Shown here piece after piece: positions 1-8,148 of a stretch of DNA of 10,077 bases; positions within the stretch are counted from its first letter, which is position 1, and each line of letters starts with the position of its first letter. Position numbers and translations under genes: made by a program. The stretch covers positions 1-10,077 of the IMG/VR virus record IMGVR_UViG_2541047687_000013; one strand, written 5' to 3'. The stretch is from a virus. Lineage: Duplodnaviria > Heunggongvirae > Uroviricota > Caudoviricetes. The notes below the pieces were generated by a model. That model was not told the origin of the DNA, did no database searches, and saw only the letters and a program-made list of their open reading frames with translations.

Positions 1-15
1 AAACCAACGTTTATC
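1..15. other. Probable crossover half-site (hix/gix/cix/pix-like) for the adjacent serine invertase, truncated by the window edge
   Basis: Positions 1-15 read AAACC-AA-CGTTT-ATC, resembling the central AAACC-nn-GGTTT core of the 26-bp sites used by Hin/Gin/Cin/Pin invertases. It sits about 60 bp upstream of the invertase start, as in Mu gin, P1 cin and e14 pin. The left half lies outside the window, so it cannot be confirmed. Confidence 0.3.
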
Positions 16-73
16 TCTCAAATCCTCCCCACATTATCTCAGTACTTTAACCACTCAAAAGGGAGTATTTTTA

Positions 74-646
74 ATGCTGATTGGCTACATACGTGTGTCA
101 ACAAATGACCAAAACACAGATTTGCAACGCAATGCATTAATGTGCGCAGGATGTGAACAGATTTTTGAGGACAAAATGAGCGGAACCAAGTCGGAACGAC
201 CAGGCCTGAAACGCGCTTTAAAGTGCCTTAAAAGAGGGGATACATTGGTGGTCTGGAAGCTGGATCGGTTGGGTAGAAGAATGAAACACCTCATTGCTCT
301 CACAGAAGAGCTACGCGCAAAAGGTGTCAATTTTCGCAGTCTGACGGATTCAATCGATACCAGCACTCCGATGGGAAGGTTCTTTTTTCATATGATGGGT
401 GCACTGGCAGAAATGGAGCGTGAACTGATAGTTGAGCGCACGCTGGCAGGACTGGCTGCTGCGCGAGCACAAGGAAGAGTTGGAGGACGTCGCCCGAAAC
501 TGACGAAGGAGCAGCATGAGCAGATCGCAAGATTGCTCCAGAAAGGGTATGACAGAAAGCGGCTGGCAATTATCTATGATATTGGACTGTCAACGATCTA
601 CCGCTATCACCCTGTTGGGACTGTCATAACGCAACCTGAAATGTAA
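74..646 (+). CDS. pin: Serine recombinase, DNA invertase of the Pin/Gin/Hin/Cin family
   Basis: 190-aa ORF with the N-terminal resolvase/invertase catalytic motif GYIRVSTNDQ (active-site Ser), the conserved LVVWKLDRLGR and FRSLTDSIDT blocks, and a C-terminal helix-turn-helix (GRRPKLT). Closely resembles e14 PinE as recalled. GGGAG Shine-Dalgarno at 61-65. Confidence 0.9.
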   Translation: MLIGYIRVSTNDQNTDLQRNALMCAGCEQIFEDKMSGTKSERPGLKRALKCLKRGDTLVVWKLDRLGRRMKHLIALTEELRAKGVNFRSLTDSIDTSTPMGRFFFHMMGALAEMERELIVERTLAGLAAARAQGRVGGRRPKLTKEQHEQIARLLQKGYDRKRLAIIYDIGLSTIYRYHPVGTVITQPEM

Positions 647-699
647 TTCTTTTTCAAATAATGAAACGCCGCGTGGATGCCATTTATCGCACAAGATAG

Positions 700-2346
700 A
701 GTGCATTTATCGCGCGGCGCATCACCGAAGTCACCGCAGACAGCGGGGAATATCAGGTGCTGGCGCGCTGGGACACGCCGAAGGTGGTGAAGGGGGTGAG
801 CTTCCTGCTCCGTCTGACCGTAACAGCGGACGACGGCAGTGAGCGGCTGGTCAGCACGGCCCGGACGACGGAAACCACATACCGCTTCAGGCAACTGGCG
901 CTGGGGAACTACAGGCTGACAGTCCGGGCGGTAAATGCGTGGGGGCAGCAGGGCGATCCGGCGTCGGTATCGTTCCGGATTGCCGCACCGGCAGCACCGT
1001 CGAGGATTGAGCTGACGCCGGGCTATTTTCAGATAACCGCCACGCCGCATCTTGCCGTTTATGACCCGACGGTACAGTTTGAGTTCTGGTTCTCGGAAAA
1101 GCGGATTACCGATATCAGGAAGGTTGAAACCACAGCGCGCTATCTTGGTACGGCGCTGTACTGGATAGCCGCCAGTATCAATATCAAACCGGGCCATGAT
1201 TATTATTTTTACGTTCGCAGTGTGAACACCGTTGGCAAATCGGCATTCGTGGAGGCTGTCGGTCAGCCGAGTGATGATGCATCAGGCTATCTGGATTTTT
1301 TCAAAGGCGAGATAGGGAAAACCCATCTGGCTCAGGAGCTGTGGACGCAGATTGATAACGGTCAGCTTGCGCCTGACCTGACTGAAATCAGGACGTCCAT
1401 AACGGATGTCAGCAATGAAATAACACAGACCGTCAATAAGAAACTGGAAGACCAGAGTGCAGCGATCCAGCAGATACAGAAGGTTCAGGTTGATACAAAT
1501 AATAACCTGAACAGCATGTGGGCAGTGAAGCTGCAGCAGATGCAGGACGGACGCCTTTATATTGCGGGTATCGGTGCCGGTATTGAGAACACCCCTGACG
1601 GCATGCAGAGTCAGGTGCTGCTGGCAGCAGACAGGATTGCGATGATTAATCCTGCGAATGGCAACACAAAGCCGATGTTTGTTGGTCAGGGCGATCAGAT
1701 ATTCATGAATGAAGTGTTCCTGAAACGCCTGACGGCCCCCACCATTACCAGCGGCGGTAATCCTCCGGCATTTTCCCTGACATCAGACGGGAGACTGACG
1801 GCGAAAAATGCGGATATCAGTGGCAGTGTGAATGCGAACTCAGGAACGCTCAACAATGTCACGATTAACCAGAACTGTACGATTAAGGGCATGCTGGAGG
1901 CGACCCAGGTCAGAGGAGATTTCGTTAAAGCTGTATCAAAAGCCTTCCCGAAAAAAGTCGGTACGTGGGGTAACACGGAAACACCAAACGGTACGGTTAC
2001 AGTCACCATCAGCGATGATCATAACTTTGACCGCCAGATTATTATTCCGCCCATTATTTTTAACGGTATAGCGTATGACGATCCGGGGAGCGGAAATAAC
2101 CCAGGAGGCACGCGATACACGGGTTATGGTTTTGAAGTTCGCAAAAACGGCGTATTAATCGCATCCAGAGAAACTAAAGGGGCCATTCCCGGTAGTTACA
2201 GTGCAGTTATTGATATGCCGAGTGGCAGGGGAAGCGTCACTCTGGAGTTTAAGATTTTCCAGAAAGGCAATCAGGGGGCAGGCAATATCACCGACTGTAC
2301 GGTGATTGTGACCAAAAAAGCCGCTTCCGGCATCAGTATTCGTTGA
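700..2346 (+). pseudogene. J: 5'-truncated host specificity protein J (central tail fibre), C-terminal ~548 codons only
   Basis: The frame opens after an in-frame TAG at 697-699 and runs to TGA at 2344-2346. The translation ([56 protein letters not shown]...) matches the C-terminal half of lambda J as recalled. Only 53 bp separate it from the invertase stop, so the N-terminal ~590 codons are absent. No Shine-Dalgarno precedes the first in-frame GTG at 757. Confidence 0.8.
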
Positions 2347-2368
2347 AATATTTATAACCCCAATAAAG

Positions 2369-2394
2369 GGCGTCAGGAATGACGCCTTTTTTAT
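2369..2394 (+). terminator. Rho-independent terminator downstream of J remnant
   Basis: Perfect 7-bp stem GGCGTCA (2369-2375), loop GGAA, TGACGCC (2380-2386), followed by TTTTTTATT. Confidence 0.7.
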
Positions 2395-2416
2395 TGCAGA
2401 AAAGCGAGAGGTAATT

Positions 2417-3016
2417 ATGCGTAAAGTTTGTGCAGCAATTTTGTCCGCAGCCATTTGTCTGGCCGTATCCGGTGCGCCTGCATGGGCGTCTGAACATCAG
2501 TCCACGCTGAGCGCGGGGTATCTTCATGCCTCGACGAACGTCCCCGGCAGTGATGATCTGAACGGGATTAACGTGAAATACCGTTATGAGTTTACGGACA
2601 CACTGGGGCTGGTGACGTCATTCAGCTATGCAGGAGACAAGAATCGCCAGCTGACCCGTTACAGCGATACCCGCTGGCATGAAGATTCCGTTCGTAACCG
2701 CTGGTTCAGCGTAATGGCGGGGCCGTCTGTGCGCGTGAATGAATGGTTCAGCGCGTATGCGATGGCGGGTGTAGCTTACAGCCGTGTGTCGACTTTCTCC
2801 GGGGATTATCTTCGCGTAACTGACAACAAGGGGAAAAAGCACGATGTGCTGACCGGAAGTGATGACGGTCGCCACAGCAACACGTCTCTGGCGTGGGGGG
2901 CTGGCGTGCAGTTTAACCCGACCGAATCCGTGGCCATTGATATTGCTTATGAAGGCTCCGGCAGTGGTGACTGGCGCACTGACGGTTTCATCGTGGGTGT
3001 CGGTTATAAATTCTGA
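2417..3016 (+). CDS. lom: Lom outer membrane protein (Ail/Lom/PagC family eight-stranded beta-barrel)
   Basis: 199-aa ORF with an N-terminal signal peptide (MRKVCAAILSAAICLAVSGAPAWA). Blocks INVKYRYE, YAMAGVAYSR and the C-terminal DIAYEGSGSGDWRTDGFIVGVGYKF match lambda Lom as recalled. GAGAGG Shine-Dalgarno at 2405-2410. Position between J and stf is as in lambda. Confidence 0.9.
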   Translation: MRKVCAAILSAAICLAVSGAPAWASEHQSTLSAGYLHASTNVPGSDDLNGINVKYRYEFTDTLGLVTSFSYAGDKNRQLTRYSDTRWHEDSVRNRWFSVMAGPSVRVNEWFSAYAMAGVAYSRVSTFSGDYLRVTDNKGKKHDVLTGSDDGRHSNTSLAWGAGVQFNPTESVAIDIAYEGSGSGDWRTDGFIVGVGYKF

Positions 3017-3042
3017 TTAGCCAGGTAACACAGTGTTATGAC

Positions 3043-3070
3043 AGCCCGCCGGTTCAGGCGGGCTTTTTTG
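3043..3070 (+). terminator. Rho-independent terminator downstream of lom
   Basis: Stem AGCCCGCC (3043-3050), loop GGTTCA, GGCGGGCT (3057-3064), followed by a T6 run and GTGGGG. Confidence 0.75.
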
Positions 3071-3080
3071 TGGGGTGAAT

Positions 3081-6000
3081 ATGGCAGTAAAGATTTCAGG
3101 TGTACTGAAAGACGGCACAGGAAAACCGGTACAGAACTGCACAATCCAGCTGAAAGCAAAACGTAACAGCACCACGGTGGTGGTGAACACGCTGGCCTCA
3201 GAAAATCCGGATGAAGCCGGGCGTTACAGCATGGACGTTGAGTACGGGCAGTACAGCGTTATTCTGTTGGTGGAGGGATTCCCGCCGTCACATGCCGGGA
3301 CCATCACCGTGTATGAAGATTCCCGACCCGGTACGCTGAATGATTTTCTCGGTGCCATGACGGAGGATGATGCCCGTCCTGAGGCACTGCGCCGTTTTGA
3401 ACTGATGGTGGAAGAGGTGGCGCGTAACGCGTCCGCGGTGGCACAGAACACGGCAGCCGTGAAGAAGTCAGCCAGCGATGCCAGCACATCAGCCCGTGAG
3501 GCGGCAACCCATGCGACTGATGCTGCAGGCTCAGCACGCGCAGCCAGCACGTCAGCCGGACAGGCCGCGTCGTCGGCTCAGTCAGCATCTTCCAGCGCAG
3601 GAACGGCATCAACAAAGGCCAGTGAAGCATCGAAAAGTGCTGCTGCTGCAGAGTCCTCAAAAAGCGCGGCAGCTACCAGTGCCGCTGCGGCGAAAACGTC
3701 AGAAACGAATGCGGCAGCGTCACAACAATCAGCAGCCACTTCTGCATCCGCCGCGACCACGAAGGCGTCAGAAGCAGCCACCTCAGCCCGGGATGCGGCG
3801 GCCTCAAAAGAGGCAGCGAAATCATCAGAAACGAACGCATCATCAAGCGCCAGTAGTGCCGCTTCCTCGGCAACGGCGGCAGCAAATTCTGCGAAGGCGG
3901 CCAAAACGTCTGAGACAAACGCCAGGTCTTCTGAAACGGCAGCGGGACAGAGCGCCTCGGCTGCGGCAGGCTCAAAAACAGCGGCTGCGTCGTCTGCCAG
4001 TGCCGCGTCAACAAGTGCCGGGCAGGCCTCAGCCAGTGCCACCGCCGCCGGAAAATCGGCAGAAAGTGCCGCATCGTCTGCTTCAACAGCCACAACGAAG
4101 GCTGGCGAAGCCACTGAACAGGCCAGCGCAGCAGCGAGGTCTGCTTCCGCAGCGAAGACATCCGAGACGAACGCGAAAGCGTCGGAAACCAGCGCAGAAT
4201 CCTCAAAAACGGCTGCCGCATCGTCCGCCAGTTCGGCGGCGTCATCGGCATCATCGGCGTCTGCTTCAAAAGATGAGGCGACCAGACAAGCGTCCGCAGC
4301 GAAGGGCAGCGCCACGACAGCATCCACGAAGGCGACAGAGGCAGCTGGCAGTGCGACGGCGGCAGCACAGAGCAAAAGTACGGCGGAATCCGCGGCAACG
4401 CGCGCCGAGACAGCGGCAAAACGGGCAGAGGATATTGCATCCGCCGTGGCGCTTGAGGATGCAAGTACGACGAAAAAGGGGATAGTACAGCTCAGCAGTG
4501 CGACCAACAGTACGTCTGAAACGCTGGCGGCAACGCCAAAGGCAGTAAAATCAGCCTATGACAATGCAGAGAAACGTCTGCAGAAAGACCAGAACGGCGC
4601 TGATATACCCGATAAGGGACGCTTCCTGAACAACATTAACGCGGTCAGTAAAACAGACTTTGCTGATAAGCGTGGTATGCGTTATGTGCGGGTTAACGCT
4701 CCTGCAGGTGCAATATCTGGAAAATATTACCCTGTTGTTGTTATGCGTTCTGCTGGCTCAGTAAGCGAACTGGCATCAAGGGTCATTATCACCACGGCAA
4801 CGCGAACCGCAGGCGATCCGATGAATAACTGCGAGTTTAACGGATTTGTTATGCCTGGTGGCTGGACTGACAGGGGGCGTTATGCTTATGGAATGTTCTG
4901 GCAATATCAAAACAATGAACGAGCCATCCACTCAATAATGATGAGTAATAAGGGCGATGATTTGCGCTCTGTGTTCTATGTTGATGGCGCTGCTTTCCCT
5001 GTTTTTGCGTTTATCGAAGATGGCCTGTCAATATCCGCACCTGGTGCTGATCTCGTTGTTAATGATACGACCTATAAGTTTGGGGCAACAAATCCGGCGA
5101 CTGAATGTATCGCGGCGGACGTTATCCTTGATTTTAAGAGTGGGCGTGGTTTTTATGAGTCTCATTCGTTAATCGTTAACGATAACTTGTCGTGCAAAAA
5201 ACTTTTTGCCACAGACGAAATTGTAGCGCGTGGTGGTAATCAGATTCGAATGATAGGTGGGGAGTATGGGGCATTATGGCGTAATGATGGCGCTAAAACT
5301 TACCTGCTGCTTACCAATCAAGGTGATGTTTATGGTGGCTGGAATACATTAAGACCGTTTGCTATTGATAACGCAACCGGCGAACTGGTTATTGGAACCA
5401 AACTGTCCGCAAGTCTGAACGGTAATGCATTAACAGCAACAAAGCTGCAAACGCCAAGACGGGTTTCTGGTGTTGAGTTTGATGGTTCCAAAGATATTAC
5501 TTTAACCGCCGCGCATGTGGCTGCTTTTGCCAGAAGGGCAACGGATACATATGCCGATGCGGATGGTGGCGTTCCCTGGAATGCCGAATCAGGCGCTTAC
5601 AATGTCACCCGCTCTGGCGACAGCTATATTCTGGTTAACTTCTATACCGGAGTCGGAAGTTGCCGGACCCTGCAGATGAAGGCGCATTACAGAAATGGTG
5701 GTCTGTTCTACCGTTCTTCAAGAGATGGCTATGGTTTTGAGGAAGACTGGGCAGAAGTTTATACCTCGAAAAATCTTCCACCAGAAAGCTACCCAGTCGG
5801 CGCACCAATCCCGTGGCCATCAGATACCGTTCCGTCTGGTTATGCCCTGATGCAGGGGCAGACTTTTGACAAATCTGCCTACCCGAAACTTGCTGCCGCT
5901 TATCCGTCAGGCGTGATCCCTGATTTGCGTGGCTGGACGATTAAGGGCAAGCCCGCCAGTGGTCGTGCCGTATTGTCTCAGGAACAGGATGGCATTAAAT

Positions 6001-6479
6001 CGCATACCCACAGCGCCAGCGCATCCAGTACGGATTTGGGGACGAAAACCACATCGTCGTTTGATTACGGCACTAAATCCACGAATAACACTGGTGCGCA
6101 TACCCATAGTTTAAGTGGCAGCACGAATGCAGCTGGTAATCACAGCCATAGAGATGGCCGTCGATTTAACCCCAGTGTTTTTAAAGATACTTATCAATAT
6201 GGTTATACAAGCTCAGGTCAAAATACCTGGGGTGTACAAGGCTCAGTAGGTATGTCTACGGGGTGGTTAGCGAATACCAGTACAGATGGTAATCATAGCC
6301 ATTCACTGTCCGGCACAGCAGCATCTGCAGGTGCACACGCGCATACTGTCGGTATTGGTGCTCATACGCACTCCGTTGCGATTGGTTCACATGGACACAC
6401 CATCACCGTTAACGCTGCTGGTAACGCGGAAAACACCGTCAAAAACATCGCATTTAACTATATTGTGAGGCTTGCATAA
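3081..6479 (+). CDS. stf: Side tail fibre protein Stf, mosaic
   Basis: The N-terminus [80 protein letters not shown] and the C-terminus ...[31 protein letters not shown] match lambda/Rac Stf as recalled. The ORF track begins at GTG 3075, but ATG 3081 with a GGGGTG Shine-Dalgarno fits the lambda start. Long Ala/Ser-rich shaft and His-x-His-rich tip. Confidence 0.9.
3460..4490 (+). repeat. GC-rich imperfect tandem repeat region encoding the Ala/Ser/Thr-rich fibre shaft of Stf
   Basis: Recurring nucleotide units such as AAAACGTCAGAAACGAATGC, TCATCAGAAACGAACGCATC, AAAACGTCTGAGACAAACGCC and AAGACATCCGAGACGAACGCG, encoding repeated AAKTSETNA / SASAAS-type peptide units. The low complexity spawns long spurious ORFs in every other frame. 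Confidence 0.8.
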
Positions 6480-7063
6480 TGGCATTCAGAATGAGTGAAC
6501 AAGCACGGACCATAAAAATTTATAATCTGCTGGCCGGAACTAATGAATTTATTGGTGAAGGTGATGCATATATTCCGCCTCATACAGGTCTGCCAGCAAA
6601 CAGTACCGATATTGCACCACCAGATATTCCTGCTGGCTTCGTGGTTGTTTTCAACAGTGATGAGGCATCGTGGCATCTCGTTGAAGACCATCGGGGTAAA
6701 ACGGTTTATGACGTAGCGTCAGGGGACGAGTTATTTATTTCTGAACTCGGTCCGTTACCGGAAAATGTTACCTGGTTATCGCCGGAAGGGGAGTTTCAGA
6801 AGTGGAACGGCACAGCCTGGGTGAAAGATGCAGAAGCAGAAAAACTGTTCCGGATCCGAGAGGCGGAAGAAATAAAAAACAGCCTGATGCAGGTAGCCAG
6901 TGAGCATATTGCGCCACTTCAGGATGCTGTAGATCTGGAAATCGCAACGGAGGAAGAAACCTCATTGCTGGAAGCCTGGAAAAAGTATCGGGTGTTGCTG
7001 AACCGTGTTGATACATCAACTGCACCTGATATTGAGTGGCCTACGAACCCTGTCAGGGAGTAA
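6479..7063 (+). CDS. tfa: Tail fibre assembly protein Tfa
   Basis: 194-aa ORF; [54 protein letters not shown]... and the C-terminal ...[21 protein letters not shown] match lambda Tfa as recalled. The ATG overlaps the stf stop (TAATG at 6477-6481), suggesting translational coupling. Confidence 0.9.
6899..7018 (+). repeat. Direct repeat copy A (tfa 3' end), partner at 7948-8067
   Basis: Manual alignment with 7948-8067 shows about 13 mismatches over 120 bp, with the first ~60 bp nearly identical. Confidence 0.8.
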
Positions 7064-7117: not shown

Positions 7118-7786
7118 CTATTTTTTCCCTGAAGCGGAAAACATTACTACAGTACCTTGAACCTTGGTTTTAACATTCTCGAAATGCTCTGAGAGTATAT
7201 GTGTTAAGCCTTCTTCGGAATCTTTTGTGTTTGAAAAGATGCCTTTCTGATTGTAAATGCGCATCAGTTTTTGACCGAAGCTATTGTGCACAACTCCATC
7301 GCCAAGAATTGTGGCTCCGTATAGAGTTCCATCGTCAGTTAAGGCCTGCGCCGCATTGCGTATTACACAGCTTTTTGTAGATATATTTCCAGGCAGGCAG
7401 TGAAGAAGGTAAAACATGGAAATGGAATCAAATTGACCATGTAACGCCGCGGGATAAGGTTCAAAAACATCATGGCTAATTTTATGTTTAATTTTTGATT
7501 CCCCAGCCCTTGTAGATGCCGCGTTCAGGCTAGCTTCGTTCAAATCCATTAAAGATATCAGACTACTCTCAGGTACGTGAGTAAGGTAAAACCCAGTTCC
7601 AACACCAATATCCAGATGGTTGTTACCTAAATGTTCCAGAAAGTGTGGAAGAAGGTGTTCCTTTGTAGGACATCCCCATGCAAGCCGATTTGATACTCCC
7701 AAAACCCACCAGTCATAAAGCTTTAGGGTAAGTGGTGTGTAAATTTTAGCCCCATCATCTGTGTTTTTTTTCATTAATTTCACCAT
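7118..7786 (-). CDS. ybcY: Class I SAM-dependent methyltransferase (Rossmann fold), substrate unknown; ybcY-like by position
   Basis: 222-aa ORF with motif I HLDIGVGTGFY (hh-D/E-h-G-x-G-x-G), an acidic post-I residue (LMDLN) and an FDSISMFYLLHCLP block typical of small-molecule/protein methyltransferases. No DPPY/NPPY or PC motifs, so probably not a DNA methyltransferase. The second ATG (7772-7774) has a GGTGA Shine-Dalgarno and may be the true start. Gene symbol is from recalled synteny with K-12 DLP12 (tfaD-ybcY-tfaX), not from sequence identity. Confidence 0.75.
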   Translation of the reverse strand: MVKLMKKNTDDGAKIYTPLTLKLYDWWVLGVSNRLAWGCPTKEHLLPHFLEHLGNNHLDIGVGTGFYLTHVPESSLISLMDLNEASLNAASTRAGESKIKHKISHDVFEPYPAALHGQFDSISMFYLLHCLPGNISTKSCVIRNAAQALTDDGTLYGATILGDGVVHNSFGQKLMRIYNQKGIFSNTKDSEEGLTHILSEHFENVKTKVQGTVVMFSASGKK

Positions 7787-7842: not shown

Positions 7843-8148
7843 ATGCTGCCGCAGCATAGCGATATTGAAATAGCCTGGTATGCTTCGATACAACAGGAGC
7901 CGAATGGCTGGAAGACCGTCACCACACAGTTCTACATCCAGGAATTCAGTGAGTATATTGCGCCACTGCAGGATGCTGTAGATCTGGAAATCGCAACGGA
8001 GGAAGAAAGATCGTTGCTGGAGGCATGGAATAAATATCGGGTATTGTTGAATCGAGTTGATACATCAGTAGCTCTGGGTATGAAGCTGTTTGTAACTCAT
8101 GTTACAGTAACAGTCATTACTATCTCGAAGGTGCAAAATGTATATTGA
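7843..8148 (+). pseudogene. tfaX: Tail fibre assembly protein remnant (tfaX-like), reading through into unrelated sequence
   Basis: The ORF contains [38 protein letters not shown], almost identical to the Tfa C-terminus at 6899-7018. The Tfa-like N-terminal body is absent and the native C-terminal tail is replaced by read-through. Nucleotide repeat copy B is 7948-8067. Confidence 0.7.

Follow-up and report, generated by a model that had tools for sequence, protein, structure and literature searches.

Proximal crossover site and recombinase of a very probable tail-fibre switch at the right end of a BcepMu-type prophage inserted in a lambdoid J gene

Switching of tail fibres by invertases of the Gin family sets phage host range. 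The window studied here (the whole stretch of viral DNA that was analysed, 10,077 nucleotides) starts with AAACCAACGTTTATCTCTC and carries a recombinase gene from position 74, which raises the question of whether its left edge cuts through the crossover site of such a switch and, if so, what the switch inverts and which element carries it. An earlier note on this DNA had read positions 1–15 as the core of an invertase crossover site placed just before an intact Pin-family gene, and had put an invertible segment with opposed fibre C-terminus/tfa pairs directly beyond the edge. We hold with high confidence that positions 1–19 are the invertase-proximal crossover site of a Gin/Pin-type tail-fibre switch and that positions 74–646 encode its recombinase.

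A crossover site and an invertase gene at the left edge

The left end of the window is organized as follows.

1–19, plus strand: site C, right-hand 19 of its 26 bp; gap-free with Mu gixR, the same site as EC958 Phi2_3prime, 20/26 with e14 pix
1–5, plus strand: AAACC, the end of the inner (tail-fibre-side) half-site
6–7, plus strand: AA core, the place of strand exchange
8–19, plus strand: CGTTTATCTCTC, the complete outer (invertase-side) half-site
20–73, plus strand: spacer between site C and the invertase start codon, equal in length to the Mu gixR–gin spacer
74–646, plus strand: Gin/Pin/Cin/Hin-family serine DNA invertase, 190 aa (WP_000904922.1), an intact ORF with its ATG at 74
96–110, plus strand: putative Fis core I, TGTCAACAAATGACC, by homology only
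144–158, plus strand: putative Fis core II, GCGCAGGATGTGAAC, by homology only
647–724, plus strand: prophage right terminus, ending ...GCGCATCA; homology to EC958 and Eco889 stops at 724
681–690 and 704–713, plus strand: two CATTTATCGC repeats in the right terminus

The resemblance reported for positions 1–15, which read AAACCAACGTTTATC, is borne out by the window-identical DNA of the Escherichia coli genome Eco889, where an inner half-site TTCCCCCAAACC, an AA core and CGTTTATCTCTC make up the 26-bp site C. Written across the window edge, the full site is TTCCCCC|AAACC AA CGTTTATCTCTC, with TTCCCCC lying off the left edge and supplied by Eco889. Matches to the 15-mer with up to three mismatches are expected by chance 0.28 times per window, so such a match is not rare; the statistics of the 15-mer are weak alone, and the significance of site C comes from its context. 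A chance resemblance was considered and is excluded by the identity of site C to the published EC958 crossover site. The position of the proximal site just before the recombinase gene follows the layout of Mu and e14, as had been claimed. The outer half-sites match the gix/hix consensus poorly (4 of 12 positions relative to Mu gixR). A second copy of the site was not found within the window, for instance in its lambdoid stf/tfa region, and a scan of positions 1–760 detected neither a sigma-70 consensus promoter nor a terminator.

The gene at 74 is the intact Pin-family invertase that had been called there: its uninterrupted 190-codon frame encodes a Resolvase domain (Pfam, E=8e-51) and an HTH_7 domain (E=1e-12), with the catalytic Ser9, the DRLGR motif and a C-terminal helix-turn-helix domain in place. 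The Mu Gin crystal structures 4m6f and 3uj3 give a full-length alignment with the protein, over 181 residues (E=2e-93). The protein shares 75% amino acid identity with Gin, 76% with PinE, 72% with Cin and 84% with the phage P88 invertase; its matches to the resolvases of gamma-delta and Tn3 are much weaker (E=1e-32 to 1e-26).

A Fis enhancer had likewise been suggested, by analogy, for the 5′ portion of this gene. Positions 96–110 and 144–158 both fit what we take to be the degenerate Fis core consensus, KNNYRNNWNNYRNNM, the centre of core I lying about 97 bp from the crossover core and that of core II 48 bp from the centre of core I. As a bare motif the pattern is not significant (two occurrences in the window versus 0.81 expected, equalled by 40 of 200 shuffles), and the enhancer as a pure motif was dropped for this reason; the two cores are recognisable by homology, both being conserved with their 48-bp spacing in gin, pinE, cin and the P88 gene. 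Synonymous differences stand at 47% in the enhancer codons versus 61%, a modest rise in conservation drawn from non-independent pairs. The ATTTG and TTAATG tracts between the two Fis-like cores parallel the ATTTA and TAATG of the Hin enhancer, in which two 15-bp Fis cores flank these tracts and the proximal core lies about 100 bp from hixL (PMC3798978). Basic residues at Hin positions 47, 48 and 51, together with Q151, R154 and L155, are conserved only in Fis/enhancer-dependent invertases (McLean et al. 2013, PMC3798978), and the corresponding residues K46, R47, K50, Q150, R153 and L154 (Hin numbering is +1) are present here. A Fis enhancer at 96–158, within the 5′ part of the gene, is plausible on these grounds.

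Partner sites, fibre cassettes and inversion

The DNA beyond the left edge was read in genomes that share the end of the window. Positions 1–726 are 100% identical to Eco889 (locus L001, in which window position 1 corresponds to 9001), and positions 1–730 match about 600 of 5,426 complete E. coli genomes at ≥99% identity; in these genomes the invertase block adjoins "phage tail protein" genes or fibre cassettes. Three crossover sites are found in the Eco889 locus.

L001 8994–9019: site C, TTCCCCCAAACC AA CGTTTATCTCTC, just upstream of the invertase
L001 7379–7404, opposite strand to C: site B, TTCCCCCAAACC AA CGTTTTTATGCG, at the stop codon of the first cassette
L001 6865–6890, opposite strand to C: site A, TTCCCCCAAACC AA GGTAATTGAGGA, inside the long fibre gene

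The three sites have the half-site TTCCCCCAAACC and the AA core in common, and C has the opposite orientation to A and B, which lie 2.1 kb and 1.6 kb to its left, respectively. The inner half-site within site A encodes part of a conserved fibre joint. Every site stands at the head of a 226–231-bp stretch, and the stretches at A and B pair with that beside C as inverted repeats (90–92% complementary). The sites bound three cassettes, Sv1, Sv2 and Sv3, which encode alternative tail-fibre C-termini, along with one tfa gene. An inverted partner site within a few kilobases to the left had been foreseen, and window-identical DNA holds two, with the invertible tail-fibre segment directly to the left of site C. 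The proposal of opposed fibre C-terminus/tfa pairs needs amending: opposed cassettes and a tfa gene are present, but a single tfa serves three cassettes.

Four arrangements of the segment were recorded, Sc being the constant N-terminal part of the fibre.

L001: Sc·Sv1, then Sv2 + tfa, then Sv3′, then pin
L016: Sc·Sv3, then tfa′ + Sv2′, then Sv1′, then pin
L014: Sc·Sv2 + tfa, then Sv3′, then Sv1′, then pin
L015: as L016 but without Sv1

Inversion of L001 between sites A and C yields L016, and a second inversion yields L014. With more than two crossover sites and cassettes permuted by one and two inversions among L001, L016 and L014, this is a small multiple-inversion system and not a two-state switch.

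To follow the rearrangement across the species, the three possible invertase-proximal junctions were built and searched in the 5,426 complete E. coli genomes, with the following outcome at ≥80% coverage; the counts are approximate, as some matches are two-piece joins.

Sv3′–pin junction: 78 genomes
Sv1′–pin junction: 127 genomes
Sv2′–pin junction: 226 genomes

All three junctions also occur as single-piece matches at 100% identity. Each of them is found in copies of the prophage that share the same insertion in irp2, with Sv3′ beside the invertase in Eco889 and GN03204, Sv1′ in Z0117EC0055, AVS0973 and many others, and Sv2′ in Iso00225 and AH21B066; the common insertion indicates descent from one transposition event. 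These junction variants in nature, together with the alternatives published from PacBio data for EC958, support the claim that both orientations exist.

The same arrangements might have come from RecA-dependent homologous recombination between the ~230-bp inverted repeats instead of from the invertase acting at the 26-bp sites, since repeats of 226–231 bp with 90–92% identity are long and similar enough for homologous inversion. Mapping of the arrangements segment by segment showed, however, that every part is 100% identical and that the breakpoints lie at the 26-bp sites, where gix/pix-homologous sequences stand beside an intact Gin homologue. L001 and L014 are two precise inversions apart, and the roughly 20 differences between repeat copies used to map the breakpoints confine the crossover at two of the three junctions to a 23-bp interval, the first of the repeat, within which the inner half-site and the AA core lie; for the third junction the interval is 85 bp, a resolution that would also suit the homologous route. 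No mosaic repeat copies were seen in this L001/L014 comparison. Breakpoints within 23 bp are more readily explained by site-specific exchange than by homologous recombination along the repeats. For the sister prophage Phi1, about half (50%) of the PacBio reads from one EC958 culture were of the alternative form, and separate contigs were obtained for the alternative alleles of Phi2 (PMC4134206); programmed switching fits such a read frequency better than homologous recombination does. On the strength of the breakpoint mapping, homologous recombination is disfavoured as the source of the rearrangements, and we consider it extremely improbable. We retain inversion by the invertase at the 26-bp sites. 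Read in this way, the different orientations in which the region to the left of the window assembles among isolates reflect neither misassembly nor strain divergence, and the "phage tail protein" fragments found there are silent cassettes and not pseudogenes.

Several further observations concern the cassettes. The two genomes p11A (NZ_CP049077.2, 5,295,151 bp) and p11B (NZ_CP103755.1, 5,295,156 bp) have a different invertase-proximal cassette at the same coordinate (~2,421,176–2,421,883), which points to switching between closely related isolates; Esc30, Esc31 and BLSE177-2012 show a similar cassette difference. In L015 (Iso00225, 1913–5010) the Sv1 cassette is absent entirely, which is consistent with deletion between two directly oriented sites or repeats. 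Deletion between direct sites is a reaction that Gin-family invertases normally avoid.

The tfa gene is co-oriented only with Sv2 (L001 7908–8522; L014 3396–4010; L016 3584–4198) and runs the wrong way round in the arrangement that expresses Sc·Sv3. With only one tfa for three cassettes, some arrangements lack an obvious chaperone gene in the expressed orientation. We offer, as a tentative and rather doubtful reading, that the element is a three-site, single-tfa mini-shufflon (a two-site switch in the EC958 paper), that the tfa-inverted arrangements reflect tfa-free folding or 'off' states, and that other prophages resident in the cell could be acted on in trans by the invertase.

The carrier prophage and its insertion in a lambdoid J gene

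Positions 1–724 are the right end of a transposable prophage of about 37.5 kb, 100% identical to the copy inserted in irp2 of Eco889. The Eco889 prophage encodes a Mor activator, Mu Gam, an AAA+ ATPase (AAA_22) and an rve-domain transposase, and carries head, sheath, tube, baseplate and fibre genes in Mu order. It starts with TGATTAGACTTGAGATAAATG, finishes with CATTTATCGCGCGGCGCATCA and is flanked by a 6-bp duplication, CCTGAG; its ends have the form TGAT...ATCA, the right end being an imperfect inverted repeat of the left (TGAT, 10 nt, GATAAATG). The prophage terminus lies within 78 bp of the end of the invertase gene. Copies of the element sit between unrelated insertion flanks (irp2, dmsC, yehY, ecpC and aroA). 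The transposase shares 68–69% identity with those of the Burkholderia phages BcepMu and phiE255 and 99% with that of PhiKM, an Escherichia phage assigned to Bcepmuvirus. The carrier is therefore a transposable prophage of the BcepMu type, and not Mu, P1 or e14.

Two other carriers had been entertained. The label 'Entero_P88' on one phage record hinted at a P2-like element, and P88 carries the 84%-identical invertase. Both a P2-like carrier and Mu proper are ruled out by the transposition module, the many unrelated insertion sites and the BcepMu-like transposase.

Two observations bear on the state of individual copies. The partial genome of PhiKM (L022, PQ738613.1, 19287–20246) breaks off in the tail-fibre gene, without an invertase, probably because the invertible region upset its assembly. 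In the Eco889 prophage the tape-measure gene (L013 30148–33360) is annotated as a pseudogene in two pieces; some prophage copies, at least, are thus defective, though the fibre segment still differs between relatives.

To the right of position 724 the window holds lambdoid tail genes.

725–2346, plus strand: 3′ part (two-fifths) of the lambdoid tail-tip gene J, cut by the insertion
2417–3016: lom
3075–6479: long side-tail-fibre gene (Stf, 1132 aa)
6479–7063: tfa
7118–7786, minus strand: methyltransferase
7843–8148: tfa fragment
8332–9816, minus strand: hydrolase

From position 725 the sequence is that of J as it stands intact in related genomes (...CTGACTG|CCGAAGTCACC...), and an uninterrupted J gene of 1165 aa is present in 10 of 10 contigs that encode the exact Stf protein of the window. 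The junction at 724/725 thus marks a prophage within a prophage, a BcepMu-type element inserted into lambdoid J and seen in no other genome searched, which gives the position its value for annotation. Window positions 1–1500 occur in one piece in none of the 5,426 complete E. coli genomes, where the match to J begins at 725; searching genome contigs for the exact 41 nt that span 724/725 returned no match, and the junction is absent from a species-representative collection as well. The target duplication predicted for this insertion is 6 bp long, CCGAAG at 725–730, and would be completed by ...CTGACTGCCGAAG standing just before a left end TGATTAGAC....

The invertible segment may be expected to be intact in the genome from which the window comes, as its 724 bp are 100% identical to active copies and the insertion is apparently recent. 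The competing view is that only the right end of the prophage survives here as a relic, with the segment deleted or truncated and nothing left to invert. Losses of this kind do occur: Iso00225 lacks Sv1, and fibre or tape-measure genes have become pseudogenes in EC958 and Eco889. The copies to which the 724 bp are identical demonstrably rearrange, however, and an insertion in J that is private to the genome of the window suggests recent transposition of the whole element with both of its ends. Fibre cassettes accompany the invertase block in the ~600 other genomes. A relic is thus unlikely in our judgment, and we favour a complete switch in this strain.

Within the lambdoid part, Stf contains a long low-complexity stretch rich in Ala, Ser and Thr with repeated KTSETNA-like motifs (window 3400–4500), which yields spurious ORFs at 3478–4485 (plus strand), 3578–4507 (minus strand) and 3673–4464 (minus strand). 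The tfa fragment at 7843–8148 repeats the end of the full tfa at 6479–7063, and the pair flanks the methyltransferase gene. In related genomes (L003 13399–21249) the tfa fragment, the methyltransferase and an omptin form a module that is present in two copies, separated by fragments of a phage integrase.

Mechanism and relation to known systems

By analogy with Gin and Hin, invertase dimers would bind site C and an inverted partner in the tail-fibre gene, and the paired sites would synapse where Fis occupies an enhancer, towards the 5′ side of the invertase gene. Ser9 would cut at the AA core, and rotation of one subunit pair by 180 degrees followed by religation would invert the DNA between the sites, such that Sc is fused in frame to another C-terminal receptor-binding cassette. 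With three sites, A and B set against C, successive inversions would generate several arrangements.

The switch at the edge of the window is already known, as the exact site and enzyme have been reported switching in EC958; the earlier note was right in both its observation and its interpretation. Forde et al. (2014, PMC4134206) described PacBio contigs for alternative tail-fibre orientations in three prophages of EC958, an E. coli ST131 strain. Table 3 of that study gives Phi2_3prime as GAGAGATAAACGTT GGTTTGGGGGAA and Phi2_5prime as TCCTCAATTACCTT GGTTTAGGAGAA, which bound an invertible segment of 2067 bp (PMC4134206). The former is the exact reverse complement of site C and the latter corresponds to site A. 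The EC958 invertase record (WP_000904922.1, an accession also present in Eco889) has a translation identical to the protein of the window, and the two DNAs differ by a single synonymous base. Phi2 is thus of the same prophage type, with an identical invertase, an identical 26-bp proximal site and the same three sites, but it is inserted next to aroA whereas the copy in the window lies inside a lambdoid J gene. The internal third site does not appear in Table 3, Phi2 being treated as a two-site switch, and the transposable nature of the prophage goes unmentioned (PMC4134206). Site B is also present in EC958, at the cassette stop codon (L021 4492–4505). What our analysis adds is modest: the three-site architecture and the wide spread of the BcepMu-type prophage in extraintestinal E. 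coli (~600 of 5,426 complete genomes).

Mu has the same order of fibre gene, invertible segment, site and invertase near the right phage end, identical spacing from site to ATG, an inner half-site of the form TTCC...AAACC and a conserved 5′ region that corresponds to the putative enhancer. Its gixR, TTCCTGTAAACC GA GGTTTTGGATAA, aligns with site C without gaps. Mu has two sites with a GA core, two complete Sv–U sets and, between gin and attR, com/mom, whereas the element described here has three sites with an AA core and degenerate outer half-sites, three Sv cassettes with one tfa, no mom, and a BcepMu-type transposition module with an inverted early operon. The defective lambdoid element e14, which carries two opposed stf/tfa sets, resembles it in the AA core common to pix and site C and in its invertase, PinE (76% identical). 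The pin-proximal pix of e14, TTCTCCCAAACC AA CGTTTATGAAAA, matches site C at 20 of 26 positions, 17 of them contiguous, whereas the tails of the outer half-sites are unlike each other (GAAAA in pix versus CTCTC in site C).

A further parallel is the Min system of p15B, a P1-like plasmid, which was reportedly described by Sandmeier, Iida and Arber in the early 1990s (reference 46 of PMC4134206) as having six sites and many more isomers. On that description, both systems have more than two crossover sites and several fibre cassettes permuted by one Gin-family invertase, with six sites in Min and three here.
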